Virus record (IMG/VR): IMGVR_UViG_3300021425_000008
Location: 32,001-96,000 of that record
From: a virus
Strand: one strand, 5' to 3'
Length of the DNA stretch: 64,000 nucleotides
Position numbers and translations under genes: made by a program. The notes beneath the pieces are model-generated. The model was not told the DNA's origin and made no database searches. It was given only the letters and a program-made list of their open reading frames with translations. Positions 23,737 through 56,217 of this stretch are shown one piece after another. The number at the start of each line of letters is the position of its first letter. Within the stretch, counting starts at the first letter, position 1.

Positions 23737-24349
23737 TGAGACAAAGATTACCAAAGGATATAATTCCATGGATGCCATGGGTTGTATGTTGGTGAGAGAT
23801 TGTAAAGAAGATGTAGAAGAAGTTCATAGTCTTTTGGATATTTCCTCACAGTATCCTAATACTGCGGAGTTTACATCATCTGCATACGAATTCAACACAA
23901 TGTTGATGACACTCAAACGTATGGGTGTCAAAGTATATCTTGCAGATCAAAGATATTTCCCGATCATGCATCGTGGCGTATATCACACGGTAAGTAACAA
24001 CATCTATCTCAATCGTAGATACATGGGTGAACCAAATGTATTGATGCAATTGATGAGACATGAAGGGTGGCATGCTGCTCAGGATTGTATGGCTGGTACT
24101 ATTAAAAATAGTATGATCGCTATTATCAAACCAGAAGATGAAGTTCCCATGATTTGGCGTGTCATGGCTGAACGAACTTATCCTGCCTCAGCTGTACCCT
24201 GGGAGGCAGAAGCACAATGGGCTGGACGTACTGAAGGTATGACACAAAATGCTCTTAATGCGTGCGCAAATGGTAAAATGTGGGAGGTATTCGAGCCAAC
24301 GCCAATGACCCGTGAATGGTTAGAAAAAAACAATTACATCAAGAACTAA
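23672..24349 (+). CDS. Secreted/membrane-anchored zincin-like protein
   Basis: Signal peptide; RHEGWHAAQDC...EAEA. Confidence 0.7.
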   Translation: MMKIRNVLLGLSLLIVPPAMADETKITKGYNSMDAMGCMLVRDCKEDVEEVHSLLDISSQYPNTAEFTSSAYEFNTMLMTLKRMGVKVYLADQRYFPIMHRGVYHTVSNNIYLNRRYMGEPNVLMQLMRHEGWHAAQDCMAGTIKNSMIAIIKPEDEVPMIWRVMAERTYPASAVPWEAEAQWAGRTEGMTQNALNACANGKMWEVFEPTPMTREWLEKNNYIKN

Positions 24350-25005
24350 TGAAAATCTTTTTAGACACAGCAGACACAGAAATCATCAAAAAGTATTGGT
24401 CTACTGGACTGATTGATGGTATCACTACAAATCCATCTCTGATTATGAAGAGTGGTCGTAATCCTGAGGATGTATATCAAGAACTCGTGGATCTTGGTGT
24501 ACCTGACATCAGTATGGAAGTTGTTGGATCTGACCTTGAAATGTATGACGAAGGTATTCGTCTGTACGAAAAGTTTGGTCCTGTATGTACTGTCAAGGTT
24601 CCATGTACCCGTGAGGGACTCATCGTATGTAAGCGATTGTCTGAACAAGGTATCAAAGTGAATGTCACCTTGATCTTCTGTGCAGCACAGGCAGTTCTTG
24701 CGGCGAAGGCTGGTGCAACTTATGTGTCACCATTCGTAGGACGATTGGACGATCAATCTGTCGCTGGTCTTGAAGTTGTACGTTCAATCTTTGAACTGTA
24801 TCGTATTCACGGTATTCGTACTCAGGTATTATCTGCATCGATTCGTAGTGTTCAACGTGCAATTCGTTCTTGGTACAATGGTGCTGAAATCTGTACGATG
24901 CCACCTAAAGTTTTTGATCAAATGTATGATCACATTCTTACCGATAAAGGTCTAGAAATCTTTGATAAGGATTGGAAAGAAGTATGTGGAGAATCTGGAG
25001 TCTAG
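24349..25005 (+). CDS. talC: Transaldolase (MipB/TalC/FSA family), auxiliary metabolic gene
   Basis: MKIFLDTAD, GITTNPSL, VKVP (Schiff-base Lys), NVTLIF, AGATYVSPFVGRLDD, ASIR. Confidence 0.95.
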   Translation: MKIFLDTADTEIIKKYWSTGLIDGITTNPSLIMKSGRNPEDVYQELVDLGVPDISMEVVGSDLEMYDEGIRLYEKFGPVCTVKVPCTREGLIVCKRLSEQGIKVNVTLIFCAAQAVLAAKAGATYVSPFVGRLDDQSVAGLEVVRSIFELYRIHGIRTQVLSASIRSVQRAIRSWYNGAEICTMPPKVFDQMYDHILTDKGLEIFDKDWKEVCGESGV

Positions 25006-25193
25006 CTCTAGGCAGAAAAGATGGACGAGATGATAGAGAAGCAGATATTATTGCTGGCATACGTACCTTTATTCTTGTGTTTTACATGGTTACCAATGTG
25101 GCTATCGTTGCCAACGCAGTAAGACATTGGAATGACGGTCAATGTGACAACACTATATCTGGCACAACTTCCTTGACAACCGACCCTAAATAA
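24984..25193 (+). CDS. Small membrane protein
   Basis: MWRIWSLALGRKDG...AD..A.IRT + TM + NAVRHW. Confidence 0.7.
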   Translation: MWRIWSLALGRKDGRDDREADIIAGIRTFILVFYMVTNVAIVANAVRHWNDGQCDNTISGTTSLTTDPK

Positions 25194-25201
25194 CATATGA
25201 T
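25144..25201 (+). promoter_or_regulatory. Sigma70-type promoter with upstream GTGACA-N10-TGGCAC operator
   Basis: TTGACA (25173)-N17-TATGAT; operator ends 7 nt before -35. Confidence 0.75.
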
Positions 25202-25226
25202 TTATAGGTAGTCAACAGGAGTCACC

Positions 25227-25403
25227 ATGTCTGCCACTTATCTCCCTCAGCGTCAAAAGTATCGTATCACTCTTGAACTCGATGTAATGGACGATTTCAA
25301 TCCACATAATATCGATTGGGAAAAGGTTCTTGATGTTCAAGGTGGCGAAAGTGTTGATTCCTATGTGGAAGATCTGTCTGTACCAGACTGTTTCTTCTCC
25401 TGA
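25227..25403 (+). CDS. Hypothetical protein (58 aa, not in ORF track)
   Basis: AGGAG SD; MSATYLPQRQKYRITLELDVMDDFNPHNIDWEKV... Confidence 0.7.
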   Translation: MSATYLPQRQKYRITLELDVMDDFNPHNIDWEKVLDVQGGESVDSYVEDLSVPDCFFS

Positions 25404-25410
25404 TAATATC

Positions 25411-25442
25411 GGGGGTGATAAATAAAATATATTATCATCCCC
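25411..25442 (+). promoter_or_regulatory. Late promoter ATAAATA within a hairpin abutting a start codon
   Basis: GGGGGTGATAA/TTATCATCCCC stem; ATAAATA at 25418-25424; ATG 25446. Confidence 0.6.
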
Positions 25443-25445
25443 ATC

Positions 25446-25637
25446 ATGGCTTTCTACACAACAAAACCATCATTGATTGATCCATCTATCACACTTTATT
25501 ATGCTGGTGGTAATAGATGGTGCGATGTGCCATCTGAAAAAGCGACTTACGCTACAAGAGAAGGTCTTGATCGTAAAGTTGCCAATGAAGATGGTAAGAC
25601 GGGATCATTCAAAACAGCTACAGTGGTAGAAGAATGA
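25446..25637 (+). CDS. Hypothetical protein
   Basis: 63-aa ORF after the late promoter. Confidence 0.7.
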   Translation: MAFYTTKPSLIDPSITLYYAGGNRWCDVPSEKATYATREGLDRKVANEDGKTGSFKTATVVEE

Positions 25638-26266
25638 AGACTTTAAGAGAGTTTTTAGAAGCATATGATCCTGAGATTCAAGGTAGATCTCAGATCAAAC
25701 AAACTGGCGACGAAGGTAGGAAAGAGCCTAAAAGAGACACCGCTAGTAGACGTAAGGCTGGTGTAAAACCCAGGGTTAAAGCCGTCGGTGGTGGTAAGAC
25801 TGCGCCAGTCGGAGAGTATAAAACTCGTTCAGACGTAGGATCTACCAAAGCAAGATCCGAGAGAGAACAACAACCTACCAAAGAGAGAGGTAGTAAAGAA
25901 GTCAAGCAATCTTACGCCGATAAAGTTAAGGCTGAGAGAAAGAAAGCCGCTCAAGCCAGAATCGCAGCCAAAAAGGCTGGTGGTGAAGTTAAGAAGACTG
26001 AAACGAAGAAGAATACAGATAAAGAAGCATCTCAACTCCTGAAGAAGAAAGAGACCAAGAAAGTCAATCCTAACTATAAACCTAAAGAAGCATCAGGTTA
26101 TACAAGACAAGAGCGCATGAAGATTACTCGTGCAGGTGAACGTGAACTGAAGAAAGACTTCAAACAACAAGAGACAGATCGCTACAAAAAAGAGACTGGG
26201 CGTAACCCAGATGCTAAAGGTAGAACTAAGATCGTTGCAAGAGTGCATAAGAGGATGTCAACATGA
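25634..26266 (+). CDS. Highly basic protein, candidate internal head protein
   Basis: K/R/E-rich; N-terminus MKTLREFLE resembles the T4 capsid-targeting sequence. Confidence 0.6.
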   Translation: MKTLREFLEAYDPEIQGRSQIKQTGDEGRKEPKRDTASRRKAGVKPRVKAVGGGKTAPVGEYKTRSDVGSTKARSEREQQPTKERGSKEVKQSYADKVKAERKKAAQARIAAKKAGGEVKKTETKKNTDKEASQLLKKKETKKVNPNYKPKEASGYTRQERMKITRAGERELKKDFKQQETDRYKKETGRNPDAKGRTKIVARVHKRMST

Positions 26267-26418
26267 CCCAAAAGATGATGAAACTGTTCTCCAATGTGAC
26301 GGAGGCAAGATCATATCTAAGGACAAACAATAGTATGACTGTGGTACAAGCCAAACAATATGTTGACAAACATACTACCATGACTAATGGTAACAAAGTC
26401 TGGGTAGTTCTCCCATAA
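26263..26418 (+). CDS. Hypothetical protein (51 aa)
   Basis: ATGA overlap; stop 4 nt before motif copy 1. Confidence 0.55.
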   Translation: MTQKMMKLFSNVTEARSYLRTNNSMTVVQAKQYVDKHTTMTNGNKVWVVLP

Positions 26419-26466
26419 TAAAGTTAGTAACCTTGAAATGTCCACTATAGTATAAGACTGAGAATT

Positions 26467-27363
26467 ATGGCAATCACACATCTGGACCATCCTGAAGATT
26501 CTGTCCTGACTGGTGATCTATCAGTCCTGGATGTATTGTATGATGAAGCAACCATCTCTATGAAGATGGACGGAATGTCGTTGGTCTGGGGTACCAATCC
26601 TGCCAATGGTAAGTTCTTTTGCTGTACAAAATCCGCATTTAATAAAAAGAAAATCAAACTTTGCTACACCACTGACGACATTTTCACTCACTTTGGTCAT
26701 CAAATTGAAGTTGTAGAGATTCTGTCATATTGTCTCAAGTATCTCCCTCGTACCGAGAACATTTACTGGGGTGATTGGCTTGGTTTCGGTCGTACTGATG
26801 TGATCACTCAGAACACTCTGACTTATGTGTTCCCTGAGGCAATCAGTCAGAAACTTGTCATCGCACCTCACACACAAGTTTTTGTCACTCAGGATGGACT
26901 ATTGTCGAATGCAGTGTGTAAACCACTGACTGAGACCTTTGTTGATACTTCTATCATCAAGTGGGTACAGCCTTGTGTTGATCGTCTGGGTCTAAAGTCT
27001 GATGTTCCTAACATCAACACTGACAAGATCAAGTTCCTGACTAAGAAGGAAGCAGAAAAGGCTAAGACTGCTATCAATGCACTGATCAAATCTGGCCAGA
27101 GTCTGACACCAGGTGATCAACCAAAGTTGATTGACATTCTGGGTTGTCCTTTTCTCACTAACTTGTATCTACTTGTGATTGACATCAAACATGAGATTAT
27201 GGACTCACTGATTGTAAACGACGCACCTGAAGCTTATCTTCCTAATGGTCAACGTTGTGAAGGTGAGGGTTATGTCCTTCACTCTATTGCTCATGGTTCA
27301 GTGAAACTGGTCGATCGTACCGAGTTTGCGTACGCTAACTTCCACAATGGGTACGGTGTTTGA
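26467..27363 (+). CDS. ATP-dependent ligase/nucleotidyltransferase-fold protein (DUF6267-like)
   Basis: THLDHPED, motif I KMDG, motif IV EGYVL, motif V VKLVDR. Confidence 0.65.
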   Translation: MAITHLDHPEDSVLTGDLSVLDVLYDEATISMKMDGMSLVWGTNPANGKFFCCTKSAFNKKKIKLCYTTDDIFTHFGHQIEVVEILSYCLKYLPRTENIYWGDWLGFGRTDVITQNTLTYVFPEAISQKLVIAPHTQVFVTQDGLLSNAVCKPLTETFVDTSIIKWVQPCVDRLGLKSDVPNINTDKIKFLTKKEAEKAKTAINALIKSGQSLTPGDQPKLIDILGCPFLTNLYLLVIDIKHEIMDSLIVNDAPEAYLPNGQRCEGEGYVLHSIAHGSVKLVDRTEFAYANFHNGYGV

Positions 27364-27406
27364 GTTAGTAACCTCGAAAGGTCTTCATTATTAGATTCGT
27401 ACCGTT

Positions 27407-27997
27407 ATGACTGTTACCACTAAGAAGTTTTTGACTAATCAACTTAAGTTGATCATGTCACTGACTGATGAACAGGTCAATATCTACACTCGCGAGACAA
27501 TGTTCAAGGTTGTGGAAGATCTTTCGGGTGGTATTTGTTGGGCTAGTTCACACAAAATTGATGACACTGGTGCACTTCTGACACCACAAGCATTTCTTAA
27601 ATGGAGTGAACATCCTGAGAAAACTTTGTCTGGTGTGATTGACATGAAGGTCAAAGGTGGACACAGTTTGACTAAAGAACACTTTGGTGGTGTTCGTAGT
27701 GGTTCGAAGTTCATCTTTGCACACCATTATGATAAGTTTGTCGAAGATCGTTCGTATGATCTTATCAACAACTTCTTGACAGATATTGATAAACTGTCTA
27801 AAGTTGTTGTGTCCACTCGTGAAGAGAATGAGGCGTTTGCATTGATTCGTAAACGGTCTCCACAAGACTATAAAGATATTGATATTGATCACCTGATCTA
27901 CGTTGAGAATGTATCAAGGAAGAAGTTTGTTAAATGTGAACACCGTGTCGTAGATTCTGACCTTACTCCATACTTTCCTGAGGTATTGTTGGGGTAA
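27407..27997 (+). CDS. Hypothetical protein
   Basis: 196-aa ORF flanked by motif copies 2 and 3. Confidence 0.75.
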   Translation: MTVTTKKFLTNQLKLIMSLTDEQVNIYTRETMFKVVEDLSGGICWASSHKIDDTGALLTPQAFLKWSEHPEKTLSGVIDMKVKGGHSLTKEHFGGVRSGSKFIFAHHYDKFVEDRSYDLINNFLTDIDKLSKVVVSTREENEAFALIRKRSPQDYKDIDIDHLIYVENVSRKKFVKCEHRVVDSDLTPYFPEVLLG

Positions 27998-28045
27998 TAC
28001 TGTTAGTAACCTCCAAAGATCCACTATATTACAGGCAACACTTAC

Positions 28046-29224
28046 ATGATCAAACTTCGCCCTCATCAACAGGACGCTGTTTACGCACTTCGTAATAATT
28101 CAATCGGACAAGTTATTGTTCCCACTGGAGGAGGCAAGACGTTGATTGCTATTATGGATGCAGTCAAACGTTTTGAAGTAAATGTTCCTCGGACTATTGT
28201 TGTTGTGGGTCCACGTATTCTGTTGATGGAACAGTTATCATCAGAGTATTTGGAACATATTACAAATGCAAACACTCTTCACGTTCACAGTGGAGAGACA
28301 CAGCATTTCAGTACCACTAAACCTGAACGTATCAAACTGTTTGTTGATATGTGTCAGACTATGCGTGAACATGTCATCATCTTCACCACTTATCATTCTC
28401 TCCATCGTATTCAAGAGAGTGGTATTGATGTAGATACGATTTACTTTGACGAGGCACATAATTCTGTTCAACGTAACTTCTACGGTCCCACTGAGTATTT
28501 CAGTAAGAAGGCAGATCGTTGTTTCTACTTCACCGCGACTCGTAAAACCAGTGTGACTGTGAAGAAACCAGGTATGAACTGGGTTGATACTTATGGTCAA
28601 GTGATTGCACGTGTGTCTGCACCTGACTTGGTACAGAATGGTTACATTCTTCCTCCTAAAGTCAAGGTGATTAAGATGGATAAGGTGGACAAAAAGTCTC
28701 TCACTCCTCACATGGAGGGGAACAATGTTCTCGCATCTATTGATGATATCAACATCAAAAAGATCCTTGTTTGTGTCAAGACCACACGACAGTTGCAGAA
28801 TCTGTTCATGACAGATTTTGCAAAACAACTCAGTGACCGTGGTTATTCTTACCTCTACATCACCTCAAAAACGGGTCCGATTGTTGACGGTCAGAAAGTA
28901 TCTCGTGAAGAGTTCTTCCAAACCCTCAACACTTGGGGCAAAGACAAATCTAAAAAGTTTGTCTGTCTCCACAGAAGTATCCTCAGTGAGGGTATTAACG
29001 TGAGTGAACTCGAAGCTGTTATCTTCCTTCGTAACATGGACAGTATTGAGCTTCTTCAAACTGTCGGACGTGTGATTCGTGTGGGTTCGTCTGCTAAAAC
29101 CTACGGTATGCTCTGCGTGCCAGTCTATAACAACGTTGGAGTTTCCACTGAGAAAGCCCTTCAACGTTGTGTAGATATTGTGTTTGAGAAGGGCGAAATC
29201 CTTGACAGTGTAACTCGGCGATGA
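28046..29224 (+). CDS. Superfamily II (DEAH) helicase, ResIII-like
   Basis: LRPHQ, PTGGGKT, FDEAH, TAT, ILSEGIN, QTVGRVIR. Confidence 0.92.
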   Translation: MIKLRPHQQDAVYALRNNSIGQVIVPTGGGKTLIAIMDAVKRFEVNVPRTIVVVGPRILLMEQLSSEYLEHITNANTLHVHSGETQHFSTTKPERIKLFVDMCQTMREHVIIFTTYHSLHRIQESGIDVDTIYFDEAHNSVQRNFYGPTEYFSKKADRCFYFTATRKTSVTVKKPGMNWVDTYGQVIARVSAPDLVQNGYILPPKVKVIKMDKVDKKSLTPHMEGNNVLASIDDINIKKILVCVKTTRQLQNLFMTDFAKQLSDRGYSYLYITSKTGPIVDGQKVSREEFFQTLNTWGKDKSKKFVCLHRSILSEGINVSELEAVIFLRNMDSIELLQTVGRVIRVGSSAKTYGMLCVPVYNNVGVSTEKALQRCVDIVFEKGEILDSVTRR

Positions 29225-29421
29225 ACTTTACTAAAGCACAACTTATTAATGCACTTGTGGCAGAGTGGGAGTATCTCTGCCACGATGATTATGATCCAGA
29301 AGATCAAACACCCGAAGAATATCGTGAAGATTTGATTGAAATGAGTTTGGAGGAGTTAGTAGAAGAAACCAGTACAGGAGAAGGTTACACTTTGGAAGAA
29401 TATATGGAGAATTGGGGATGA
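29221..29421 (+). CDS. Acidic hypothetical protein
   Basis: ATGA overlap; 66 aa. Confidence 0.7.
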   Translation: MNFTKAQLINALVAEWEYLCHDDYDPEDQTPEEYREDLIEMSLEELVEETSTGEGYTLEEYMENWG

Positions 29422-29621
29422 ATTACACAAACTCAGCCATTCTTGATTGTAAACCAGGTCCATTACCTATTGTTGTTGGTGATGGATACCTGGCTGCAAT
29501 TCCTATGGGAGGATCACAAACTCAAATGTGTGTGATACACAATGGTGTCCCTGTCAAAGTATGTCGTAACCACAAATCTGCGATGACTTTGATTAACAAA
29601 CTTAAAAAAAGAAAGAGTTAG
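29418..29621 (+). CDS. Hypothetical protein
   Basis: ATGA overlap; TAG stop supplied by motif copy 4. Confidence 0.65.
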   Translation: MNYTNSAILDCKPGPLPIVVGDGYLAAIPMGGSQTQMCVIHNGVPVKVCRNHKSAMTLINKLKKRKS

Positions 29622-29701
29622 TAACCTCGGAATGTCCCCTATAGTGTAGACACCTCTCAGAGCCACCTTAAAGACCCTAGAGCACCACTTTTCTCCTTAT
29701 C

Positions 29702-29902
29702 ATGAACATCGACACCCAACTTCAAACAATTATCGAAAATCTGGAAGATGGCGTAAAAGTGTCATACGAATCACTGAATGATCCTGATCAGGGTTATCCT
29801 TACGCCACTGGCTATTCACGGTCTACGATGCGTCATTGTATCGAAGATCTTCGATATGTTATCGAACAGTACCGTACTATTACTCTGGAGGAAGGAAAAT
29901 GA
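29702..29902 (+). CDS. Hypothetical protein
   Basis: GYPYATGYSRS motif; 66 aa. Confidence 0.7.
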   Translation: MNIDTQLQTIIENLEDGVKVSYESLNDPDQGYPYATGYSRSTMRHCIEDLRYVIEQYRTITLEEGK

Positions 29903-30147
29903 TTACGGCTCAAACTATTACCGTCAAATACGATTTTGATTGTGATTATATTTGGTCTGATATTTCTGGTCTCATCAATGAGTCTGGTGTCGAGCCTTTG
30001 ACTGTCATTGTTCATAATGATCGGACGATTGACAATGTGGAGATGATATTCTCTAATGTAGATGACGCAGTTCGTGTCACTGAAACTTATCTTGACAGTG
30101 ATGATCCTGCTGACATAATGACGTACGTTGATCCATCTCTTCTATGA
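29899..30147 (+). CDS. Hypothetical protein
   Basis: GGAGGAAGGA SD, ATGA overlap. Confidence 0.65.
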   Translation: MITAQTITVKYDFDCDYIWSDISGLINESGVEPLTVIVHNDRTIDNVEMIFSNVDDAVRVTETYLDSDDPADIMTYVDPSLL

Positions 30148-30689
30148 AAAAGATCATTCTTGCCACACTATCAGCACTCAGTCTGATTCCGTTTAATTCA
30201 GTTCATGCCTCAACATTCAAAGATCATGTTAAACTCTGGAAAGTATTGGACCAGATCGGTGTCACAACCGTCGTCAATAATCCCGTCCATTGTTATGATG
30301 CTAAGCCTCAGCTTGATGGTATTTACTTCCCTTATTCTGGATTACTCGTTGTCTGTCAAGACAATAGAAAACCTGGAGAGGGTCAAGTTGAGTGGACAGA
30401 AAACGATCTAGACACACTCAGACATGAAGCACAACATGTAGTCCAAGATTGTGCTAATGGTCCACTATTTGATGGTAAATCTCGGTCAATGTTCGATCAA
30501 GATGAACTCTTAGCATTCATTGGAGCATCAACATGGACCAAGGAAAAGGTCAACGGTTTGTATAAACGACTCGATGATTTAGGCCTGACTGAGAAAGAGA
30601 TCATCATGGAAATTGAGGCCTATGTAGTTGCATCTGGTATTTCTGCCGATGCTATTGCAGACAAACTACTTGAATTCTGTAAGAATTAA
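30144..30689 (+). CDS. Secreted zincin-like protein, paralogue of 23672
   Basis: Signal peptide; RHEAQHVVQDC...EIEA. Confidence 0.7.
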   Translation: MKKIILATLSALSLIPFNSVHASTFKDHVKLWKVLDQIGVTTVVNNPVHCYDAKPQLDGIYFPYSGLLVVCQDNRKPGEGQVEWTENDLDTLRHEAQHVVQDCANGPLFDGKSRSMFDQDELLAFIGASTWTKEKVNGLYKRLDDLGLTEKEIIMEIEAYVVASGISADAIADKLLEFCKN

Positions 30690-30733
30690 AGTTAGTAACC
30701 ACCAAACGTCACTATTATTGTAAGACACACATT

Positions 30734-30943
30734 ATGAACAATTCTTCTCAAATTCTGCGTGAACTTCAGGAACTCCGTAAATCGTGGAGGGCACAAAACT
30801 TCAACTACACTGTCAATCAACAGTCACGATATGATGAGTTGATGATGCTCCGTCGCGCATTTATTGCTAAGTGGCAAGAAGATGGCCTGGTCTGGAAAGG
30901 CCCATCTAACGTTGGCAAAGCTTCTACCGTGACTGCAGAATGA
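30734..30943 (+). CDS. Hypothetical protein
   Basis: 14 nt after motif copy 5. Confidence 0.7.
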   Translation: MNNSSQILRELQELRKSWRAQNFNYTVNQQSRYDELMMLRRAFIAKWQEDGLVWKGPSNVGKASTVTAE

Positions 30944-31263
30944 TGAAATTTGATTCTTCTAACACCGAAACATTCACTGTTGATGGTACTGAATTCCAGT
31001 TCAATACTGATCGAGTTCAGTACATCGCTGAAGAACAAATTGATCATTATGAAACACGAGTCAAGCAACTTGCCAAGAGTCTGAAGAAGAAAAAGAACAA
31101 AGAACAGCTGTCAAATGATATTGTTGCTCTCTATCAAGAGTGGAATGTGAAAGATAACGATGAGATTCTTTATCTGTTGTTCTCTAAAGACAATGAAGAC
31201 ATCTTCACCGATGTAACTACAGAGAATGATCTTTATGCCAATCCTGAGGAACCAATTGCATGA
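30940..31263 (+). CDS. Hypothetical protein
   Basis: ATGA overlap; 107 aa. Confidence 0.7.
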   Translation: MMKFDSSNTETFTVDGTEFQFNTDRVQYIAEEQIDHYETRVKQLAKSLKKKKNKEQLSNDIVALYQEWNVKDNDEILYLLFSKDNEDIFTDVTTENDLYANPEEPIA

Positions 31264-31340
31264 TTGCACTTTTCAAATACTTCTATTATGTTTTTCTTGG
31301 TTGTATTGTGATGATGATCGTCAAACTATTGGCGAATTAA
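31260..31340 (+). CDS. 26-aa membrane peptide
   Basis: MIALFKYFYYVFLGCIVMMIVKLLAN; ATGA overlap; stop 1 nt before motif copy 6. Confidence 0.5.
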   Translation: MIALFKYFYYVFLGCIVMMIVKLLAN

Positions 31341-31370
31341 AGTTAGTAACCTCCAAATGTCCACTTTAGT

Positions 31371-31727
31371 ATGAACAACACTTCCGCTATGAAAACTCAA
31401 ACTAAAGGTGAGTTTCTCTCTGATTGTCTGATTGAAACTCTCAACGACATGTGGAAAGTTAATTCTCTTGAAAACAGTCGTAATTCATATCAACAACTTG
31501 AATGTGAAGTTGGACGCAAATATGTAAAGATCTGGGATTATCTTGTGAGTGATGGTGAGAGAGTCCGTGGACGTTCTTGCTGGATGTTTGTAGATAAGGA
31601 AACTGGTTCCTGCTATAAACCTGCCTCACACAAAGCACCAGCAGTTGGTATCAGGTATCAGATCGAAGATCTTATCGAATCTCCTATGATTTGCGACCCA
31701 TATGGGTCATTCTTGTACCTGAAATAG
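31371..31727 (+). CDS. Conserved phage hypothetical protein
   Basis: GRKYVKI...FVDKETG..YKPAS.KAPA.GIRY; true start may be ATG 31389. Confidence 0.75.
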   Translation: MNNTSAMKTQTKGEFLSDCLIETLNDMWKVNSLENSRNSYQQLECEVGRKYVKIWDYLVSDGERVRGRSCWMFVDKETGSCYKPASHKAPAVGIRYQIEDLIESPMICDPYGSFLYLK

Positions 31728-31768
31728 GTTGGAATTAAAGTTAGTAACCTCCAAATGTCTCCTATAGT

Positions 31769-32011
31769 ATGAACAACACTCCAATGACTCTCACCGAACG
31801 AAACCAAAAGCTTTACGACTTGCGTCAGAAACTCGACAAAGCTCGTGCAGAAGTTGCATGGATCGAACAAGAGATCTGGCTTGTTAAGGATCAATACGAT
31901 CGTCAAGATCTTGATCTCTTCCAGGAAATGTTTGGCGAGAAAAACACACTGTGGGATCATCTTGATCGCATGAGTGACACTCCCATGGCCGAAGAAGTCT
32001 ACGGAGGTTGA
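31769..32011 (+). CDS. Coiled-coil hypothetical protein
   Basis: After motif copy 7; true start may be 31784. Confidence 0.7.
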   Translation: MNNTPMTLTERNQKLYDLRQKLDKARAEVAWIEQEIWLVKDQYDRQDLDLFQEMFGEKNTLWDHLDRMSDTPMAEEVYGG

Positions 32012-32012
32012 T

Positions 32013-32171
32013 ATGGCTTACCCTCTCGGCATTGATAACCCTATTCTGATCAAAGGTGTGATTGGTTCACACAAATGGGCATTGTATTGGCGTGAAGACA
32101 TGACCAAGATTGCCACATTTAATTCGCAGTTCCAAGCATACGAAGCCCGTCGTTTTCTTCTCTCCAAATAA
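32013..32171 (+). CDS. Hypothetical protein
   Basis: GGAGGT SD; MAYPLGIDNP... Confidence 0.65.
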   Translation: MAYPLGIDNPILIKGVIGSHKWALYWREDMTKIATFNSQFQAYEARRFLLSK

Positions 32172-32329
32172 TGAACCAACTCGAAATGTTGTCTGCCCGT
32201 GAACAACTCATGGAAGACATTGATTGTATCATCACTGATTACTTTGCACAGTTTGATGTCAATTATGACGAAGAACTTGTGAAGATTTTGTGTGATGCCG
32301 TCTGTAACAACTTTCCTACACAAAAATGA
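32171..32329 (+). CDS. Hypothetical protein (52 aa, not in track)
   Basis: TAATG coupling; MNQLEMLSAREQLMEDIDCII...LCDAVCNNFP. Confidence 0.65.
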   Translation: MNQLEMLSAREQLMEDIDCIITDYFAQFDVNYDEELVKILCDAVCNNFPTQK

Positions 32330-32499
32330 AACTATCTAAAGCACAAGTTATTCGTGTGGTCAGAGATACTGCGTTGAATGTTGATAAGAACCTCACACGA
32401 GAAGAGAAACAACAAGTCTTCAATAATGTGGTCGATGGTCTACATCGTGACGGAAGAATCACGAAGAAACAACAAATGGCATGGACACATCCGTTCTGA
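32326..32499 (+). CDS. Hypothetical protein (57 aa, not in track)
   Basis: ATGA coupling; FNNVVDGLHRDGRITKKQ..W.HPF. Confidence 0.65.
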   Translation: MKLSKAQVIRVVRDTALNVDKNLTREEKQQVFNNVVDGLHRDGRITKKQQMAWTHPF

Positions 32500-32552
32500 T
32501 TATTGTTAGTAACCTCGAAATGTCCCCTATAGTGTAGGAACCACTCAACCAC

Positions 32553-32876
32553 ATGCGTAAGATCGAAACCCTGATGAACGAAGCAGTTGCCAACAACAAA
32601 GATTGGCAATCTTCCAACACCAGTGTTACCTACAACGAAGAGAATGATGTCTCTATTGTTCGTCTTCACGGTAACAAGATCGCAGAGATTGGTGATGACT
32701 ACCTTCAGATCTTTGATGGCGGTTGGCAATCCAACACCACCAAATCACGTCTGAATGCACTCATCAACCGTTTCTGCAATGCAGTCACTGATGGTGTATT
32801 TCAGAAGGATTATGTTTGGTACGTTCGTGACAACAACGTGACCAAAGAATTTACTTCTGGTTACATCTTTGCCTAA
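32553..32876 (+). CDS. Conserved phage early protein
   Basis: MRKIE...LHGNKIA...DGGWQSNTTKSRLNAL. Confidence 0.75.
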   Translation: MRKIETLMNEAVANNKDWQSSNTSVTYNEENDVSIVRLHGNKIAEIGDDYLQIFDGGWQSNTTKSRLNALINRFCNAVTDGVFQKDYVWYVRDNNVTKEFTSGYIFA

Positions 32877-32942
32877 GATGACTCACGGAGAGACCAACAC
32901 TCTCTCCCTATAGTTTTCCCTTCATTCTTTACATTCTTTCTA

Positions 32943-33137
32943 ATGAAAACCACCACAAAAAGTACTAATCACAAAGTTGAATTTGATTCGTCCGAATATA
33001 TTCTTTTGATGGATATGCTCTCAGATGTTATTAACAATGATGGTAAATTAGATGATGATTTGATGGATTATATTAACACTGATAGTGATAACAATGCCTT
33101 TAATTCTCTCCATTATAAACTCATGCAAGCGATGTAA
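32943..33137 (+). CDS. Hypothetical protein
   Basis: 64-aa acidic ORF. Confidence 0.6.
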   Translation: MKTTTKSTNHKVEFDSSEYILLMDMLSDVINNDGKLDDDLMDYINTDSDNNAFNSLHYKLMQAM

Positions 33138-33155
33138 TCTTGTTCCCTCTTTTTT

Positions 33156-33398
33156 ATGTCTTTCATCGCACATTACACTGATCCAATGACTCTCACTCCT
33201 CAACAACTTGAAAATCTAAAGAGTGACTATGCCTGGCAAATTGTCGATGGTATGGATCTCAAAACACTTTGCCAGTGGGCAGCAGAACAAATTGAAGCAA
33301 ATATGAAGGATTACGATGAGACTGACCTGCAAGAAGAGATTAGTGATATGATGGGCGAAGATGTATGGGAGGACATGAAGAAAGATGCAATCGGGTGA
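33156..33398 (+). CDS. Hypothetical protein
   Basis: YAWQIVDGMDLKTL; acidic. Confidence 0.7.
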   Translation: MSFIAHYTDPMTLTPQQLENLKSDYAWQIVDGMDLKTLCQWAAEQIEANMKDYDETDLQEEISDMMGEDVWEDMKKDAIG

Positions 33399-33585
33399 TA
33401 TAGTAGAATTCAAGGGAGCATCACGATGGCAAGTGTTATGGGCATCGACTGATTATCCATCACATCTTATCATTGGTAAACGCTATGTTGTGGAGAGTGT
33501 ACACACTTATCCATGGTTCACAAAGATCACATTAGAACACAAGTCTGGTCAGTTCAATTCAGTTCATTTCACAAAAGTATCATGA
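33385..33585 (+). CDS. Hypothetical protein
   Basis: 66 aa, coupled to both neighbours. Confidence 0.65.
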   Translation: MQSGDIVEFKGASRWQVLWASTDYPSHLIIGKRYVVESVHTYPWFTKITLEHKSGQFNSVHFTKVS

Positions 33586-33716
33586 ACAAGTTCACTGTCA
33601 CACTCGAAATTGAGACCTATTCTGATGATCCAGAAGATTGGATTATTGACAGCATCTCCGAGAATCTTGAGGATGATGAACAAATTACGAGCATAAACGT
33701 TCAGTTACAAAGTTAG
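33582..33716 (+). CDS. Acidic hypothetical protein (44 aa)
   Basis: ATGA overlap; TAG stop supplied by motif copy 9. Confidence 0.6.
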   Translation: MNKFTVTLEIETYSDDPEDWIIDSISENLEDDEQITSINVQLQS

Positions 33717-33836
33717 TAACCTCGAAAGGTCCACAGTAGTATAAGAGTCGGACTTCTCTCACCTGATTGCTTCTCCGAATAGGACTTCTCTCAGGTGATT
33801 GTTTCTCTGGCTCACAAGCTTTTCTTTTTTTCCATC

Positions 33837-33980
33837 ATGAAAATCGCACTTCTGATTGTTGTTGGTATTCTGTTCTGGACGAGTGATGATGCACGAAACT
33901 TCACCGCAGATCAACTCAACAATGCAAGTGAAATTGTGCGGCCTGATGTTGAGAAGAAAGTCTTCAGCATTAGTTTCTAA
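33837..33980 (+). CDS. Small membrane-anchored protein
   Basis: MKIALLIVVGILFW... Confidence 0.6.
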   Translation: MKIALLIVVGILFWTSDDARNFTADQLNNASEIVRPDVEKKVFSISF

Positions 33981-34013
33981 TCTTGTTAGTTACCTCCAAA
34001 CGTCCCCTATAGT

Positions 34014-34268
34014 ATGAACATGACTCAAACCACGATGACCAACGAAACTTACAACGGTTGGGCAAATTACGAGACCTGGAATGTGGCTCTCTGGCTTGGC
34101 AATGACGAGGGTATGTATCGAATGGCTCGTATGTATCGCCATCATGGTTATAAGTCTCTGAGCCATATGTTGGAAGAATCTTATGGCTCAGTCACGCCTG
34201 ATGGTGTATATTGGAAACACGCAGATCTTGATATTGACGAACTGAACGAAATGCTGGAGGATCTTTGA
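34014..34268 (+). CDS. Conserved phage hypothetical protein
   Basis: YNGWANYETWNVALW...TPDGV.W; true start may be 34020 or 34035. Confidence 0.75.
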   Translation: MNMTQTTMTNETYNGWANYETWNVALWLGNDEGMYRMARMYRHHGYKSLSHMLEESYGSVTPDGVYWKHADLDIDELNEMLEDL

Positions 34269-34270
34269 TC

Positions 34271-34549
34271 ATGAATGCACCTGAGTTCGCCACATCTAAT
34301 CTGTCAAAGATCCGTCCTAAACTTCGTACTCAAGGCAATGTGACTGGTAACTTTGGAAGACCAAAAGTCAAAGCCGCAAACAATCAACAACTCGGATATA
34401 CCAAGAAAGATCACATTAACATGATCACCTGTAAGGAAGATTATATTGCCAAAATGTATCAGATCCTGGATACTACTGATGATCAAAAGATTCGTAACTT
34501 TGCCTATTCAGAAATCAAGAAGTATTTGATACAAACTGGCCAATGGTAA
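34271..34549 (+). CDS. Hypothetical protein
   Basis: GGAGGA SD upstream; basic N-terminal half. Confidence 0.65.
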   Translation: MNAPEFATSNLSKIRPKLRTQGNVTGNFGRPKVKAANNQQLGYTKKDHINMITCKEDYIAKMYQILDTTDDQKIRNFAYSEIKKYLIQTGQW

Positions 34550-34582
34550 TAAAGTTAGTAACCTCCAAATGTCTTCTATAGT

Positions 34583-34807
34583 ATGAATACAACTCAAGCT
34601 CTCTCAATTCTCTCTGAACAGTTCAACGCTACTTACACAGGTTCTAAAACAGTTCGTGAAATGTGTTCTAATCTGATCGATGCATGTTATTGGGATAAGG
34701 AAGATCCCAACACTGTATATCATCAGTTTAAGACTCAAGATGGTATGCCAAATCGTATTGTTGAAGATAGTCAAATCATCTCTCTTGCTCTTTCCTATTC
34801 CAACTAA
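34583..34807 (+). CDS. Hypothetical protein
   Basis: ATG directly after motif copy 11. Confidence 0.65.
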   Translation: MNTTQALSILSEQFNATYTGSKTVREMCSNLIDACYWDKEDPNTVYHQFKTQDGMPNRIVEDSQIISLALSYSN

Positions 34808-34809
34808 TT

Positions 34810-34968
34810 ATGCTCTTTAATTGTGACATTGCCTGGTATGATAGCAAAGGTAGGAGACACACTACAACGATTGAATCTGATCGAACAGATAGAGACTTTA
34901 TCCGTCAATTAGTCGAAGCTCGTTATCCTACATCTAAGGTCATTATCAACCGAGTCTATCAAAAATGA
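34810..34968 (+). CDS. Hypothetical protein (52 aa, not in track)
   Basis: MLFNCDIAWYDSKGRRH...VEARYP. Confidence 0.55.
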   Translation: MLFNCDIAWYDSKGRRHTTTIESDRTDRDFIRQLVEARYPTSKVIINRVYQK

Positions 34969-35012
34969 ACCGTTAATTTATCCCCTTCGGGTATCCATTC
35001 ATTTCATTCATT

Positions 35013-35180
35013 ATGAATCATCACATTTACCATCTAAGGAACACTGAGCTAGATCAGGATTTAGCTCTTATGTTATCACCTATTATAGCTGCCTATCGTC
35101 CCCATGATGACATCCCCAGTAAGGAACAATTAGGTGATCCCATACAACGAGCTACCTGTAATCCTTTCACTAATGTATAA
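35013..35180 (+). CDS. Hypothetical protein (55 aa, not in track)
   Basis: Open frame after a CU-rich leader. Confidence 0.45.
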   Translation: MNHHIYHLRNTELDQDLALMLSPIIAAYRPHDDIPSKEQLGDPIQRATCNPFTNV

Positions 35181-35185
35181 CGAGT

Positions 35186-35240
35186 GATAGCTAGATTTAA
35201 CCCCTAAAATAAGGTCTAAATACTAGCTATTGCCTTTTTT
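35186..35240 (+). terminator. Long imperfect hairpin followed by T-run
   Basis: GATAGCTAG-ATTTA-ACC...GGT-TAAAT-CTAGCTATT, then GCCTTTTTT. Confidence 0.45.
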
Positions 35241-35369
35241 ATGCCAAATAAATGGCTAATTAAATATAAGCTAATGTTTGCGCTAAGTTACTACAAAGGG
35301 GCTACAGAGTGACTCGCTAGGTACTCATGGGTGCTTAAAATGGCTGATCTTATAGTCATCTAAGATCGT

Positions 35370-35398
35370 ATTCTATCAGACCTTCTGCATAATGTCAA
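35370..35398 (-). promoter_or_regulatory. Antisense sigma70-type promoter
   Basis: Reverse complement reads TTGACA-N17-TAGAAT. Confidence 0.6.
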
Positions 35399-35519
35399 CC
35401 CCCAAATCCTGTCAAATCACTAATCCTTATCTGTCATAAATCTCCGAGTCCTCAGAGACACATAAGAGGGTCTTATTTTCCGCCATTATTGTTAGTAACC
35501 TCGAAAGGTCTTCTACAGT

Positions 35520-35729
35520 ATGAACACAACTCAAATGCATAAGTTCAACATCTACGGTGAGTTTATCCGCCCTAATGGTCATCAACAGTATGACATTCTG
35601 AGCTACATTGCCGAGACAAGAGAAGAGGCAATTGCTACATGTAGGAAGAACAATCCTCACTTCAACATTATCACAATTCAGGTAGATGATACAGCACCTG
35701 AGGTAGTGAGAATGCAACCCCTTATATAA
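35520..35729 (+). CDS. Hypothetical protein
   Basis: After motif copy 12; true start may be 35535. Confidence 0.65.
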   Translation: MNTTQMHKFNIYGEFIRPNGHQQYDILSYIAETREEAIATCRKNNPHFNIITIQVDDTAPEVVRMQPLI

Positions 35730-35799
35730 CACTTACTACATGACCTGATGATGTCATTAAACCCATCACACATACACACACTATTTCACACAAACTCTC

Positions 35800-35940
35800 A
35801 TGTCCCGTTCTGTTCTCATTGGTCTGCTGCGTAAGGGAAAGACTGGTGAAGAAGTCCTTGCTATCTTGGACGCCATTTGTAACAACGAAGAACCACAGAT
35901 TGAGAAGAGCTATGGTACACTCGAACCCCTGACATTCTGA
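35800..35940 (+). CDS. Hypothetical protein (46 aa, not in track)
   Basis: MSRSVLIGLLRKGKTGEEVLAILDAI. Confidence 0.6.
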   Translation: MSRSVLIGLLRKGKTGEEVLAILDAICNNEEPQIEKSYGTLEPLTF

Positions 35941-35979
35941 GGGTATTATTGTTAGTTACCTCGAAATGTCCCCTATAGT

Positions 35980-36228
35980 ATGAACATGACTCAAACCACA
36001 ATGGTTAACACTTTCACTGAGAACTTTGACATCATGGGTGATATGACCATCGATGAACTTATCTCGTTCGTTGATATCAACCCCGTGTCAGTTGTTCACT
36101 CTCCCTCTCCAAATTGTTCGGAGTCTTATGACATCACCTTCAAAACATTTGAAGACATGATGACATTTACCAGAGGATACTTTGGAGACTACAGTGATAC
36201 CGAGATCCGTGAAGTTATGGGTTGGTAA
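35980..36228 (+). CDS. Hypothetical protein
   Basis: After motif copy 13; true start may be 35986 or 36001. Confidence 0.65.
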   Translation: MNMTQTTMVNTFTENFDIMGDMTIDELISFVDINPVSVVHSPSPNCSESYDITFKTFEDMMTFTRGYFGDYSDTEIREVMGW

Positions 36229-36309
36229 GTAACACTCACTGGGGTCACAGTTGTTATCAATTAGTGACCCTACAGTTCTTGACACTTAGAGGGGTTATAT
36301 GGTAGACTG

Positions 36310-36445
36310 ACAGTGTATCGATTCGACAGTGTTTTTGGCGGGTCGTTGATACCGCGGGGACCGCAAAGAGCCCCCCCTTAAAAGAAATTGCGGCAACTCT
36401 AACCTACAAAGGTCCCCAAACGGCCTTAAGAAAAGCCGCCGATAA
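36310..36445 (+). ncRNA. Candidate structured non-coding element
   Basis: GC-rich nested complementary segments downstream of TTGACA-N18-TAGACT (36279-36308); no ORF in track. Confidence 0.35.
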
Positions 36446-36488
36446 AAAAAATTTCTATATAAAAAATTCCCCCATAAAGATTTTCCAT

Positions 36489-36710
36489 ATGGCCCCTTCA
36501 GAAGACACGAAGTTATATCACATCTACTTAAAGAACGAGTGTGTACTTCATAGTTTGTCAGAGGAGAATTTTAAGAGTAGTTGGGAGACCTTACAGAATC
36601 TGGTGGGGCTTGTGAAGACTGACTATCATTCTGAGGATCTCTCATATGAAGTAGTGGATGTACTACAGGATAGAGAGGATATCAGTAATCTGTCAGATAG
36701 TTCACACTGA
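36489..36710 (+). CDS. Hypothetical protein
   Basis: YHIYLK..C...LSEE.F...W..L..LVGL.KTDY. Confidence 0.7.
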   Translation: MAPSEDTKLYHIYLKNECVLHSLSEENFKSSWETLQNLVGLVKTDYHSEDLSYEVVDVLQDREDISNLSDSSH

Positions 36711-36739
36711 CAGTGAGGAATACCGAAGGTATTTCGAGA

Positions 36740-36768
36740 TTGACAGAGTACTACATAATTGGTATAAT
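36740..36768 (+). promoter_or_regulatory. Perfect sigma70 promoter
   Basis: TTGACA-N17-TATAAT with TGn extension. Confidence 0.85.
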
Positions 36769-36796
36769 AATGATTGAAATGGAGTGATTCTAATTC

Positions 36797-37573
36797 ATGG
36801 CAAAAGGTTTTACAGTAAAGGCTTCAACACCAAAAAAAGATAAAGGTCCAGAGTGGGACTACGAAGCCATTAAAGAGAGAATGAGGGGCAAAGCGATTGT
36901 CTTCTGTCTACCTGGAAGGGGATGTTCATATGCATTCATGAAGAACTTTGTACAATTGTGTTTTGACTTGGTTCAGAACCAGATGAGTATTCAGATCAGT
37001 CAGGACTACTCGTCGATGGTGAACTTCGCACGTTGTAAGTGTCTCGGCGCCAATGTATTGAGAGGGCCTGACCAGATTCCTTGGGACGGTAAGCTTCAGT
37101 ATGATTATCAGTTGTGGATTGACTCTGATATTATTTTTAACACCGAGAAGTTCTGGCAGCTGTGCGACCTAGCGTTAAACTCTGAGGGAGAAGAGAAGGA
37201 GATTGTTGCTGGTTGGTATTCGACTGAGGACGGGCGAACAACCTCTGTTGCACATTGGCTGGAAGAAGATGACTTCAGGAATAATGGTGGTGTGATGAAT
37301 CATGAGATGGTTGATGGTATTCAGAAACGTAAGAAACCCTTTACTGTTGACTACACTGGTTTTGGATGGGTGATGATTCAGAATGGTGTCTTTGAGAATA
37401 AGGCAATGAAGTATCCTTGGTTTGCACCAAAGATGCAAGTGTTTGAATCTGGTGCAGTTCAAGATATGTGTGGTGAAGACGTTTCGTTCTGTCTGGATGC
37501 AATTGACGCAGGATATAATATTTGGTGTGATCCACGGATTCGAGTTGGTCACGAGAAGACAAGAGTCATTTGA
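36797..37573 (+). CDS. Glycosyltransferase-like protein (GT-A fold), cyanophage conserved
   Basis: LWIDSDI, VDYTGFGWV, GEDVSFC, WCDPRIRVGHEK. Confidence 0.8.
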   Translation: MAKGFTVKASTPKKDKGPEWDYEAIKERMRGKAIVFCLPGRGCSYAFMKNFVQLCFDLVQNQMSIQISQDYSSMVNFARCKCLGANVLRGPDQIPWDGKLQYDYQLWIDSDIIFNTEKFWQLCDLALNSEGEEKEIVAGWYSTEDGRTTSVAHWLEEDDFRNNGGVMNHEMVDGIQKRKKPFTVDYTGFGWVMIQNGVFENKAMKYPWFAPKMQVFESGAVQDMCGEDVSFCLDAIDAGYNIWCDPRIRVGHEKTRVI

Positions 37574-37578
37574 TTCTG

Positions 37579-37618
37579 AGGTGGGTTCCTTGACAGGACC
37601 CACCTTTTTTAGTATGAT
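37579..37618 (+). terminator. Intrinsic terminator superimposed on a sigma70 promoter
   Basis: AGGTGGGTTCCT-TGAC-AGGACCCACCT-TTTTT; TTGACA (37590)-N17-TATGAT. Confidence 0.75.
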
Positions 37619-37641
37619 ATGGGGGTACAAATGAGACAGGC

Positions 37642-37929
37642 ATGACCTATCGACCAAAGAACGAGTGTGACGATTGTGGTTACACTTGGTATCCAAGAGG
37701 AAAGAATCGTTCACTGAGATGTCCACATTGTGGAAGTCGTGATATCATTCAATATGAAACTCGATACACCACTAATTGGTGGCCTCTTAAATTCTTAGTG
37801 ATTTTATTTGTGTCTTTCATTATTGGTATGAAGGCTCAAGAAGCTAAGAATGATGTTCTGACTAATGTGGCTATGATTGGTTGTCTAGGTGGTGCAGTTG
37901 GTTTCACTATTTCTTACGCAAGAGATTAA
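37642..37929 (+). CDS. Zinc-ribbon protein with two C-terminal TM helices
   Basis: CDDCGYTW...CPHCGS followed by two hydrophobic stretches. Confidence 0.75.
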   Translation: MTYRPKNECDDCGYTWYPRGKNRSLRCPHCGSRDIIQYETRYTTNWWPLKFLVILFVSFIIGMKAQEAKNDVLTNVAMIGCLGGAVGFTISYARD

Positions 37930-38075
37930 TGGCAAAACTCAAAAAATCTTTGACTGGTCAGACGATGATCGACTCGACTCCGAAGAAGACTCGTCAGGGC
38001 ATGGGTAAACACACGAAACTTGCAGCAACTTCTGCTAATAAGAAGAAGAAGCGTTATCGTGGTCAAGGACGTTGA
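37929..38075 (+). CDS. Small basic protein
   Basis: TAATG coupling; PKKTRQG.G.HTK...KKRYRGQGR. Confidence 0.7.
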   Translation: MAKLKKSLTGQTMIDSTPKKTRQGMGKHTKLAATSANKKKKRYRGQGR

Positions 38076-53917: not shown

Positions 53918-53951
53918 AATAAATAAAACATAGAAAAGGATCCTACAGTAG

Positions 53952-54617: not shown

Positions 54618-54652
54618 ATTAACGTCTAAATAAGAAAAAAGTCCTCTAACAA

Positions 54653-56212: not shown

Positions 56213-56217
56213 GAGAT

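Follow-up and report, generated by a model that had tools for sequence, protein, structure and literature searches.

Positions 32001-96000 of the IMG/VR virus record IMGVR_UViG_3300021425_000008, a stretch of 64,000 nucleotides that we call the window, contain an array of small gene cassettes, each of which is headed by a copy of one short repeated element. This repeat is real and more than a product of chance, and the sequence comparisons reported here give good support, both from its anatomy and from the loci of relatives, to reading it as a promoter that also acts as a seam for recombination. In our judgement each copy is probably the compact expression head of an early-type transcription unit and, at the same time, the place at which cassettes recombine. 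The source contig, which measures 141,061 bp and is rated 68% complete, belongs to an uncultured S-B05-like, T4-type Synechococcus myovirus. Its closest isolates are S-B05, RB11-B, RN05-S and S-B43, all of which have Synechococcus MW02 as their host.

Thirteen copies in one array

A weight matrix built from the 13 sites of an earlier note on this DNA, which had been made from the letters alone, was used to scan the whole contig. It returned exactly 13 copies, all on the plus strand and all at window positions 26423-35979 (9.6 kb); the rest of the 141-kb contig and the opposite strand were free of them, so that the claim of a same-strand set confined to this region held. A second matrix, limited to positions 8-36 (counted here and below from the first base of the element as first described), gave these copies scores of 19-45 bits against a null maximum of 3.3. 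The exact pattern GTTAGT-N17-TATAGT occurs seven times in the window, always on the plus strand, where 0.01 occurrences are expected, and the −10 box is degenerate in six of the copies.

The array opens with copy 1 (26423-26451), an exact match to the pattern that heads a DUF6267 gene (26467-27363). Copy 2 (27364-27392; −10 box CATTATT) heads a gene for a 196-aa product (27407-27997), and copy 3 (28002-28030; CTATATT) heads a ResIII/DEAD helicase (28046-29224) together with two small open reading frames (ORFs) to 29621. At copy 4 (29617-29645; exact) the upstream stop codon lies within the element, and three ORFs follow at 29702-30689. Copy 5 (30691-30719), which has an ACCACC core and the −10 box TATTATT, heads the ORFs of 30734-31263. 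Copy 6 (31342-31370; CTTTAGT) is followed by a DUF7717 gene (31371-31727), copy 7 (31740-31768; exact) by four small ORFs (31769-32499), and copy 8 (32505-32533), identical to the consensus, by Kyano_Gp96 (32553-32876) and by ORFs to 33716 that include DUF7326. The upstream stop falls within the element again at copy 9 (33712-33740; CAGTAGT), from which a long leader runs to a 47-aa ORF (33837-33980). Copy 10 (33985-34013), with a GTTAGTTAC head, precedes DUF7249 (34014-34268) and 34271-34549; copy 11 (34554-34582; exact) heads three small ORFs (34583-35180); and copy 12 (35491-35519; CTACAGT), which stands after a 310-nt non-coding gap, heads 35520-35729 and 35800-35940. The final copy, number 13 (35951-35979), also has a GTTAGTTAC head and precedes 35980-36228. 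The identity of copies 10 and 13 extends 20 nt beyond TATAGT although the genes downstream of them are unrelated. The gap before copy 12 (35181-35490) has no convincing ORF over its 310 nt, and a minus-strand TTGACA-N17-TAGAAT within it (35398-35370) is directed against the array.

The ORF map gives one to five ORFs per copy, in agreement with the earlier count, and places the upstream stop inside the element or at most 5 nt away in 9 of the 13 copies, nearly the 10 first given; in two more it is 10-12 nt away, so that it lies within 12 nt in 11 copies. The products of the array are DUF6267, the ResIII/DEAD helicase, DUF7717, Kyano_Gp96, DUF7326, DUF7249 and about 20 small proteins without a family. 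Pfam and PHROGs searches with 30 cassette products returned the DUFs, Kyano_Gp96 and the helicase only. No array product was marked by these family searches as a host-takeover or anti-defence protein, and the anti-defence roles that had been suggested are neither supported nor excluded by them.

Anatomy of the element

Conservation was assessed over 266 unique sites drawn from 74 viral contigs that hold GTTAGTAACCTCNAAANGTC. It spans positions −6 to +36 and reads, in order, AWTAWW, GTTAGTWAC, CTC, N, AAA, N, GTC, YN, CTATAGT and RTRANCA. The 29-bp unit first described is present but too short, since conserved AWTAWW precedes it and RTRANCA follows it, for about 45 bp in all. Each unit runs from an AT-rich stretch with the upstream stop, through a GTTAGTWAC head (−35 to −27) and a CCTCNAAANGTCYNC core (−26 to −13), to TATAGT, RTRANCA, a leader and the ATG. 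A conserved CA stands at positions 35-36, that is 6-7 nt past TATAGT, which is where a sigma70-type polymerase would be expected to start. The geometry as a whole is of the sigma70 type, with a −10 box, 17-bp spacing and CA at +1, and with GTTAGT in the place where the −35 hexamer would be expected.

The element is strictly co-oriented with the genes. In relatives, 361 of 364 sites lie outside ORFs and on the coding strand (3 of 364 are inside an ORF), and the upstream stop ends 0-9 nt before the element in 229 of 362. The next ATG is found 15-19 nt past TATAGT in 172 of 359 sites and abuts TATAGT in 98 of 359. Six window copies are of the abutting kind (31342, 31740, 33985, 34554, 35491 and 35951), and each of them is followed, 15-21 nt on, by an in-frame ATG, so that the ATG next to TATAGT probably results from the RTRANCA consensus as a side effect. 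Judging from these six copies, the 98 abutting sites of the relatives appear to have an in-frame ATG at +15 to +21 as well. The true leader would then probably be 8-12 nt long, rich in CA and without a Shine-Dalgarno sequence, and start codons called directly after TATAGT are probably 5-7 codons too early.

Folding gave no sign of a structured element. The 46 nt before 278 sites had a minimum free energy of −5.7 kcal against −5.3 kcal in the control (p=0.10), which does not amount to an upstream stem-loop, and 42-mers of the element folded at −2.3 kcal on the plus strand and −4.6 kcal on the minus strand against −3.5 and −4.3 kcal for shuffles, which does not amount to a hairpin. There is no terminator-like site before most copies, no TGCTT (MotA box) in the 266-site consensus, and no match at all in an Rfam scan of 20000-41000 at E values up to 0.1. 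The absence of TTGACA and of a stem-loop, remarked upon from the start, is borne out by this folding and by a consensus sigma70 scan, which lists true TTGACA promoters at 25173, 36279, 36740 and 37590 and none of the 13 copies.

These results bear on the possibility that the element is no promoter at all and works in a read-through polycistronic transcript, where it would direct processing or the initiation of translation from a constant distance ahead of the start codon. The ATG distance of 15-19 nt, the leaders without a Shine-Dalgarno sequence and the lack of terminators between cassettes, owing to which the element is probably transcribed from upstream, would all suit such a signal. However, the element has neither RNA structure nor an Rfam match, its CCTC has the same sense as the anti-Shine-Dalgarno sequence and is not its complement, and a TAnnnT box with CA 7 nt further on, aligned with the −10 of Syn9 and S-RIM2 (see below), fits recognition as DNA. 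We therefore consider a purely RNA-level role to be quite improbable.

In regard to the identity of the head, the sites of NtcA (GTA-N8-TAC), the Pho box and the LexA box were compared by eye and rejected, the second half-site being absent, and a promoter for a T7-type single-subunit polymerase (CCCTATAGT, which resembles CACTATAG) was dropped, the phage being T4-like. Within one genome positions 13, 17 and 22 are free to vary and the remainder is fixed, which points to selection rather than homogenisation of the copies. At the non-hexamer positions, conservation does exceed what sigma70 needs, as had been claimed.

Promoter-like properties

Ordinary promoters of the form TTGACA-N17-TAnnnT occur in this phage as well, and the consensus scan places four of them on the flanks of the array. 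One of them (TTGACA-N17-TATGAT, 25173-25201, plus strand) lies upstream of the array, another (TTGACA-N18-TAGACT, 36279-36308, plus strand) directly 3′ of it, and two more follow at 36740 and 37590. The element would thus be a second promoter class and not this phage's version of the standard one.

In Syn9 and S-RIM2 the orthologues of the helicase and of gp90/Kyano_Gp96 carry a different repeated promoter unit at the same place, and the −10 of that unit (TATTCT or CATACT), with the ATAAGAGTC that follows it, aligns base for base with TATAGT-ATAAGAGTC here. The early genes of Syn9 and S-PM2 have been reviewed as carrying a sigma70-like upstream motif (PMC2984593). Replication and virion genes are not preceded by the element, which would therefore belong to an early class by its position. 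We propose that host RNA polymerase would start about 7 nt past TATAGT, and that head and core would replace the −35 hexamer, being read either directly or through a protein. The non-canonical promoter of the earlier note agrees with the geometry and with the presence of a copy before every cassette, and its transcription start is a predicted one.

A universal core with genome-specific heads

To judge from the sequences compared, the element represents one form of a family that is widespread among cyanomyoviruses and is made up of a universal core, CTAAAG-N-GTCCCTATAGT, and a genome-specific head of 9-12 bp at the −35 position. S-B05 and RB11-B have no GTTAGTWAC; their core and −10 are the same and are preceded by ATTACTCAC. 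The head is GTTACTCAC/ATTACTCAC in SynMITS9220M01 and GGGGGGTCG in S-SM2, and P-TIM68 combines a GTTAGTTAC head with an AT-rich core. The core CTAAAGNGTCCCTATAGT alone matched at least 120 further viral stretches, and the heads among the matches listed include GGGGGGACG, ACTGGTCCC, ACTGAGGCC, CTTGGATCC, CAGGGAGCC and ATAGCTCAC. Across 76 loci with at least three copies, heads of the same locus share 94% identity and heads of different loci 60%, and a mean of 97% of the copies of a locus lie within two mismatches of its majority head (head purity 0.97). These 76 loci have at least 22 majority head types, and the core is common to all of them.

Among 50,697 phage records the family was found in the S-B05 group, S-B43, SynMITS9220M01, S-SM2 and one single-cell virus only, with P-TIM68 recognised by direct reading; Syn9, S-PM2 and S-RIM2 contain no copy of the head-plus-core element. 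Complete relatives hold 9-10 copies, on one strand and in one 14-kb region. The array of S-B05 (MK799832) is split, with two copies by the helicase at about 156 kb and seven on the opposite strand at 31-41 kb, and that of RB11-B is contiguous. The core pattern was sought in 185,579 prokaryote genomes and gave six scattered single matches, none of them cyanobacterial; a regulon copied from the host was ruled out, as no cyanobacterial genome has the core. No published description of the element was found by a full-text literature search, whose coverage left out some key cyanophage papers.

Orthologues of DUF6267 and Kyano_Gp96 keep the core and change the head in four lineages. Close pairs have different heads, as is the case for this phage and S-B05 (helicase 90% identical) and for SynMITS9220M01 and S-SM2 (83%), and one head is shared by the distant S-B05 and SynMITS9220M01. 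Two arrays, L029 (IMGVR_UViG_3300032087_005064) and L106, have mixed heads. In L029 the helicase has a ATTACTCAC-type element as in S-B05, and the next cassettes have GTTAGTAAC heads; it is an apparent recombinant of the two lineages.

At positions 13, 17 and 22, copies of one genome resemble each other hardly more than copies of different genomes do, and since these positions are not homogenised, wholesale copy conversion does not explain the uniformity of the heads. The simplest reading of this uniformity is selection for the exact head within each genome, which would imply a reader that differs between phages. A dedicated reading factor is plausible because the head is genome-specific, and for the present it has the standing of a candidate. 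The idea of a specific factor, as first put forward, survives in this sharper form of a genome-specific head on a universal core.

Carried to its full extent, this idea would describe a factor-dependent promoter whose shuffling is a by-product. Host polymerase would contact the core and the −10 box, and a phage protein, possibly delivered by the virion, would dock on the co-evolving head at −35 to −27, as a functional counterpart of the MotA box and of sigma appropriation for phages without MotA and AsiA. The uniformity of heads within loci and their variety between them, the orthologues that keep the core and exchange the head, the close relatives that differ in head and the distant ones that agree, the unhomogenised positions just a few bases off and the lack of the core pattern in cyanobacterial genomes all speak in its favour. 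A T4-type capsid-targeting protein, moreover, adjoins the array and has nearly the same isolate set as the element. However, no reader protein was identified, and this candidate is a low-complexity, basic protein that does not track the head (S-B05 and SynMITS9220M01 share a head at 41% protein identity) and whose co-occurrence may reflect physical linkage. The mixed-head arrays also speak against it, as does the confinement of the element to one region of 10-14 kb, with no genome-wide regulon. MotA and AsiA (PF09114, PF09010) gave no matches, in a weak test in which the control genomes were silent as well, and a Sigma70_r2 match at contig 117902-118042 was weak and below the cut-off. On balance we hold a factor-dependent promoter of this kind to be a serious possibility that falls short of an even chance.

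The gene of the candidate injected protein (25634-26266, plus strand) lies directly upstream of the array, as it does in every isolate with the element family, and encodes a very basic, low-complexity product of 210 aa. Its N-terminus is MKTLREFLEA here and MKTFQQFIAEA in relatives, matching the MKTYQEFIAEA start of T4 internal proteins II and III. The latter sequence is the capsid-targeting signal of T4 proteins that are injected with the DNA, and the product of 25634-26266 is likely to be an injected head protein too, on the strength of this resemblance. Homologues are found in 10 of the 50,697 phage records, essentially those holding the element family, and control proteins of the same region in 4, 104 and 406. 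As the reader of the head this protein is a doubtful candidate, its similarity not following head type, its sequence being of low complexity and its gene always adjacent to the array.

A still bolder proposal, which we regard as speculative and somewhat unlikely, is that of a two-part promoter common to several cyanomyovirus genera (the S-B05 group, SynMITS9220M01, S-SM2, P-TIM68 and many uncultured phages), with a core read by host polymerase, a head read by a fast-evolving and possibly injected phage protein, and heads swapped by the same recombination that moves the cassettes. It would constitute a counterpart, so far not described, of sigma appropriation for phages in which Alt, Mod, MotA and AsiA are lacking and, if true, would let each lineage control one block of its early genes by a switch of its own. 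The means by which T4-like cyanophages initiate and time transcription without these four proteins are an acknowledged open question (PMC2984593). The element family offers a concrete handle on it, being abundant in marine viral contigs and present in at least five cultured phage-host systems, and its universal and lineage-private parts could be swapped in reporter or in-vitro assays.

Gain, loss and relocation of cassettes

When 24001-38500 was compared by blastn with the loci of relatives, the ends of the aligned pieces clustered at the 5′ edge of the copies, and in several relatives the pieces overlapped by 26-33 nt exactly on the element. The cassette at 27364-28001 (copy 2 and the 196-aa gene) is absent from this place in S-B05 and RB11-B. 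There a single hybrid element joins the DUF6267 gene to the helicase, where this phage has element, cassette and element. The upstream flank of the hybrid is that of copy 2, and its 3′ half and downstream flank are those of copy 3. In RB11-B the same cassette is found 5 kb away, between two other elements and before the gene that is headed here by copy 7. A relocated cassette together with a single hybrid copy is, as far as sequence can tell, the signature of exchange between direct repeats. Junctions of gain, loss and reordering thus fall in the element, where the earlier note had expected them to lie in relatives.

The same tendency was seen when ORFs were called in 77 loci and clustered into families, and a shared left neighbour was scored for pairs of loci sharing a gene. 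Over all genes, the left neighbour was kept in 11% of comparisons across an element (294/2614) versus 48% without one (2239/4688). For genes inside arrays the values were 12.8% (232/1811) across an element and 41.1% (694/1688) at element-free boundaries, with a Mann-Whitney p of 0.016 for the family-level difference in arrays. The helicase, which is always headed by an element, has 18 different left neighbours in 32 loci. The presence of the element is stable by downstream family, at 93-100% for the helicase, DUF6267, DUF7717, Kyano_Gp96 and the family of the copy-7 gene. Finally, in pairs with the same downstream gene and different upstream genes, extra identity sets in from about positions 17-28 of the element, with none upstream, an onset that would fit crossovers in the conserved core.

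The contig encodes a RecA/UvsX protein at 133232-134026, and T4-type recombination works on homologies of less than 50 bp (PMC2839356). Given such a protein, the 13 direct copies of about 30-45 bp would serve as short homologies at which cassettes would be deleted, inserted and moved, and the junction would fall inside the element, leaving one hybrid copy.

Several points weigh against this double role of promoter and seam. We infer promoter function from anatomy and comparison, and early timing from position and from homology to Syn9 genes. At the −35 position no more than 3 of 6 bases agree with TTGACA, and the sequence there is wholly different between lineages, so that host sigma alone may not suffice. 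As for the seam, many element-free boundaries of the arrays are as fluid as element boundaries, so that shuffling does not depend on recombination at the element. The identity-profile measure is confounded by the kinship of the loci, and selection for intact transcription units could alone enrich the surviving junctions at promoters. The element is accordingly a preferred seam and not the sole one, and an exclusive role for it as a joint finds no support, many element-free boundaries of the same arrays being equally fluid.

The argument from selection can be taken further, to a model in which the copies are ordinary lineage-specific early promoters and nothing else, and junctions are found there just because rearrangements that leave units intact survive. 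Element-free boundaries before four of the gene families (F11, F24, F29 and F47) are indeed as variable as element boundaries, single-gene indels are found at overlapping stop/start junctions without an element, and relatives also have a breakpoint at the canonical TTGACA promoter of 36279. Nevertheless, the relocated 27364-28001 cassette begins and ends within elements, with a single hybrid copy at the empty site, and several relatives show aligned pieces that overlap exactly on the element. Recombination of the T4 type is also able to use such short repeats, and circles have been demonstrated experimentally for the early-promoter cassettes (PeSL) of T4-type phages (PMC2839356). A promoter without any part in the exchange is in our view rather unlikely. 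Under the preferred reading, in which promoter and seam coincide, shuffling at the element would help to explain the turnover of blocks of small unknown genes in cyanophages.

Setting of the array and neighbouring features

The array is situated in a variable (hyperplastic) region, with transaldolase and other auxiliary genes on one side and the baseplate module on the other, and a run of small genes is kept at the same location in Syn9, S-RIM2, S-SM2, P-TIM68 and SynMITS9220M01. In S-B05 and RB11-B an HNH/homing endonuclease comes right after the helicase; it is absent here.

Within the array, a hairpin GGAGAGA-N7-TCTCTCC at 32887-32914 is followed by CTATAGT, upstream of the ORF 32943-33137, and may represent a relic or variant of the element from which head and core are missing. 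Beyond the 3′ end of the array, the stretch 36279-36450 is non-coding, GC-rich and apparently structured, and is fed by the canonical promoter TTGACA-N18-TAGACT. It contains AACCTACAAAGGTCCC (core-like at 36401-36416), a 17/18 match to the core of the element in the same sense. The stretch has no Rfam match, and its conservation extends to RB11-B, several uncultured relatives and the element-less S-RIM2.

Comparison with known systems

The array had been called integron-like, and it does share with integron attC cassettes the same-strand arrangement, the repeated site between cassettes and an order that differs between relatives. An attC-type site served by a dedicated recombinase, with excisable circles, would account for this appearance and for the element-bounded moves of cassettes, and for these only. 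However, searches of the 141-kb contig and of five complete relatives with the element family gave neither a tyrosine (PF00589) nor a serine (PF00239) recombinase, control genomes being positive. The element has no attC-like fold and no hairpin potential on either strand, and the cassettes hold up to five genes and have their own promoters in place of one common promoter. An integron of any such kind is thus extremely improbable, and that part of the earlier note has to be abandoned.

T4 middle promoters consist of a MotA box at −30 and a −10 box, and are read by MotA together with AsiA-remodelled sigma70. PmSL units in nt-1 also occur at sites of shuffling (PMC4122927). The element resembles these in having a −10 box and a conserved non-sigma box near −30 that replaces the −35 hexamer. 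Unlike them, it has a box unrelated to TGCTT, and it stands in a single region and not before replication genes; a search for homologues of MotA and AsiA, which is a weak test, gave none.

The early promoter of the Syn9 type heads orthologous genes (helicase, gp90/Kyano_Gp96) in the same genome region, its −10 with ATAAGAGTC aligns with the element, and it has an upstream AAGTGTCCAC box similar to the AAANGTCC portion of the core. In Syn9 (44000-62000) and S-RIM2 the unit consists of a AAGTGTCCAC(TATC) box, a TTGA-type −35, TATTCT or CATACT, and then ATAAGAGTCAAAGG. It differs from the element in its length of about 70 bp, in its TTGA-type −35 and in a GTGTCCAC box about 45 nt before the −10, a type of box that is present at this distance in Syn9 and S-RIM2 and in none of the 13 copies.

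By analogy, the array works like the PeSL cassettes of T4-type phages and not like an integron, without being a strict member of that group, because the stem-loop is absent and the −35 box is not sigma70-like. Shuffling and mini-circles between PeSL units have been shown in RB49/phi1 (Arbiol et al. 2010, PMC2839356), and PeSL units mark indels in T4/PST and in KVP40/nt-1 (Comeau et al. 2014, PMC4122927). Differences from PeSL lie in the absence of a stem-loop or terminator, so that the cassettes here are not transcriptionally insulated, in the lack of a TTGACA-like −35 and of a Shine-Dalgarno sequence, in the spacer core that is strongly conserved across genera and combined with a genome-specific head, and in the cyanobacterial host. 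Circles are established for PeSL, whereas those of this array are hypothetical. In both cases, small non-essential genes in a hyperplastic region of a T4-type myovirus are interspersed with copies of a conserved composite unit, which comprises an AT-rich part, a promoter (putative here) and, at a defined spacing, the start codon; the sequence of the unit varies with the phage lineage, the units hold the ends of indels, replacements and displacements between relatives, and no dedicated recombinase is involved. The element would therefore extend promoter-mediated modular shuffling to marine cyanophages, in a terminator-less form.

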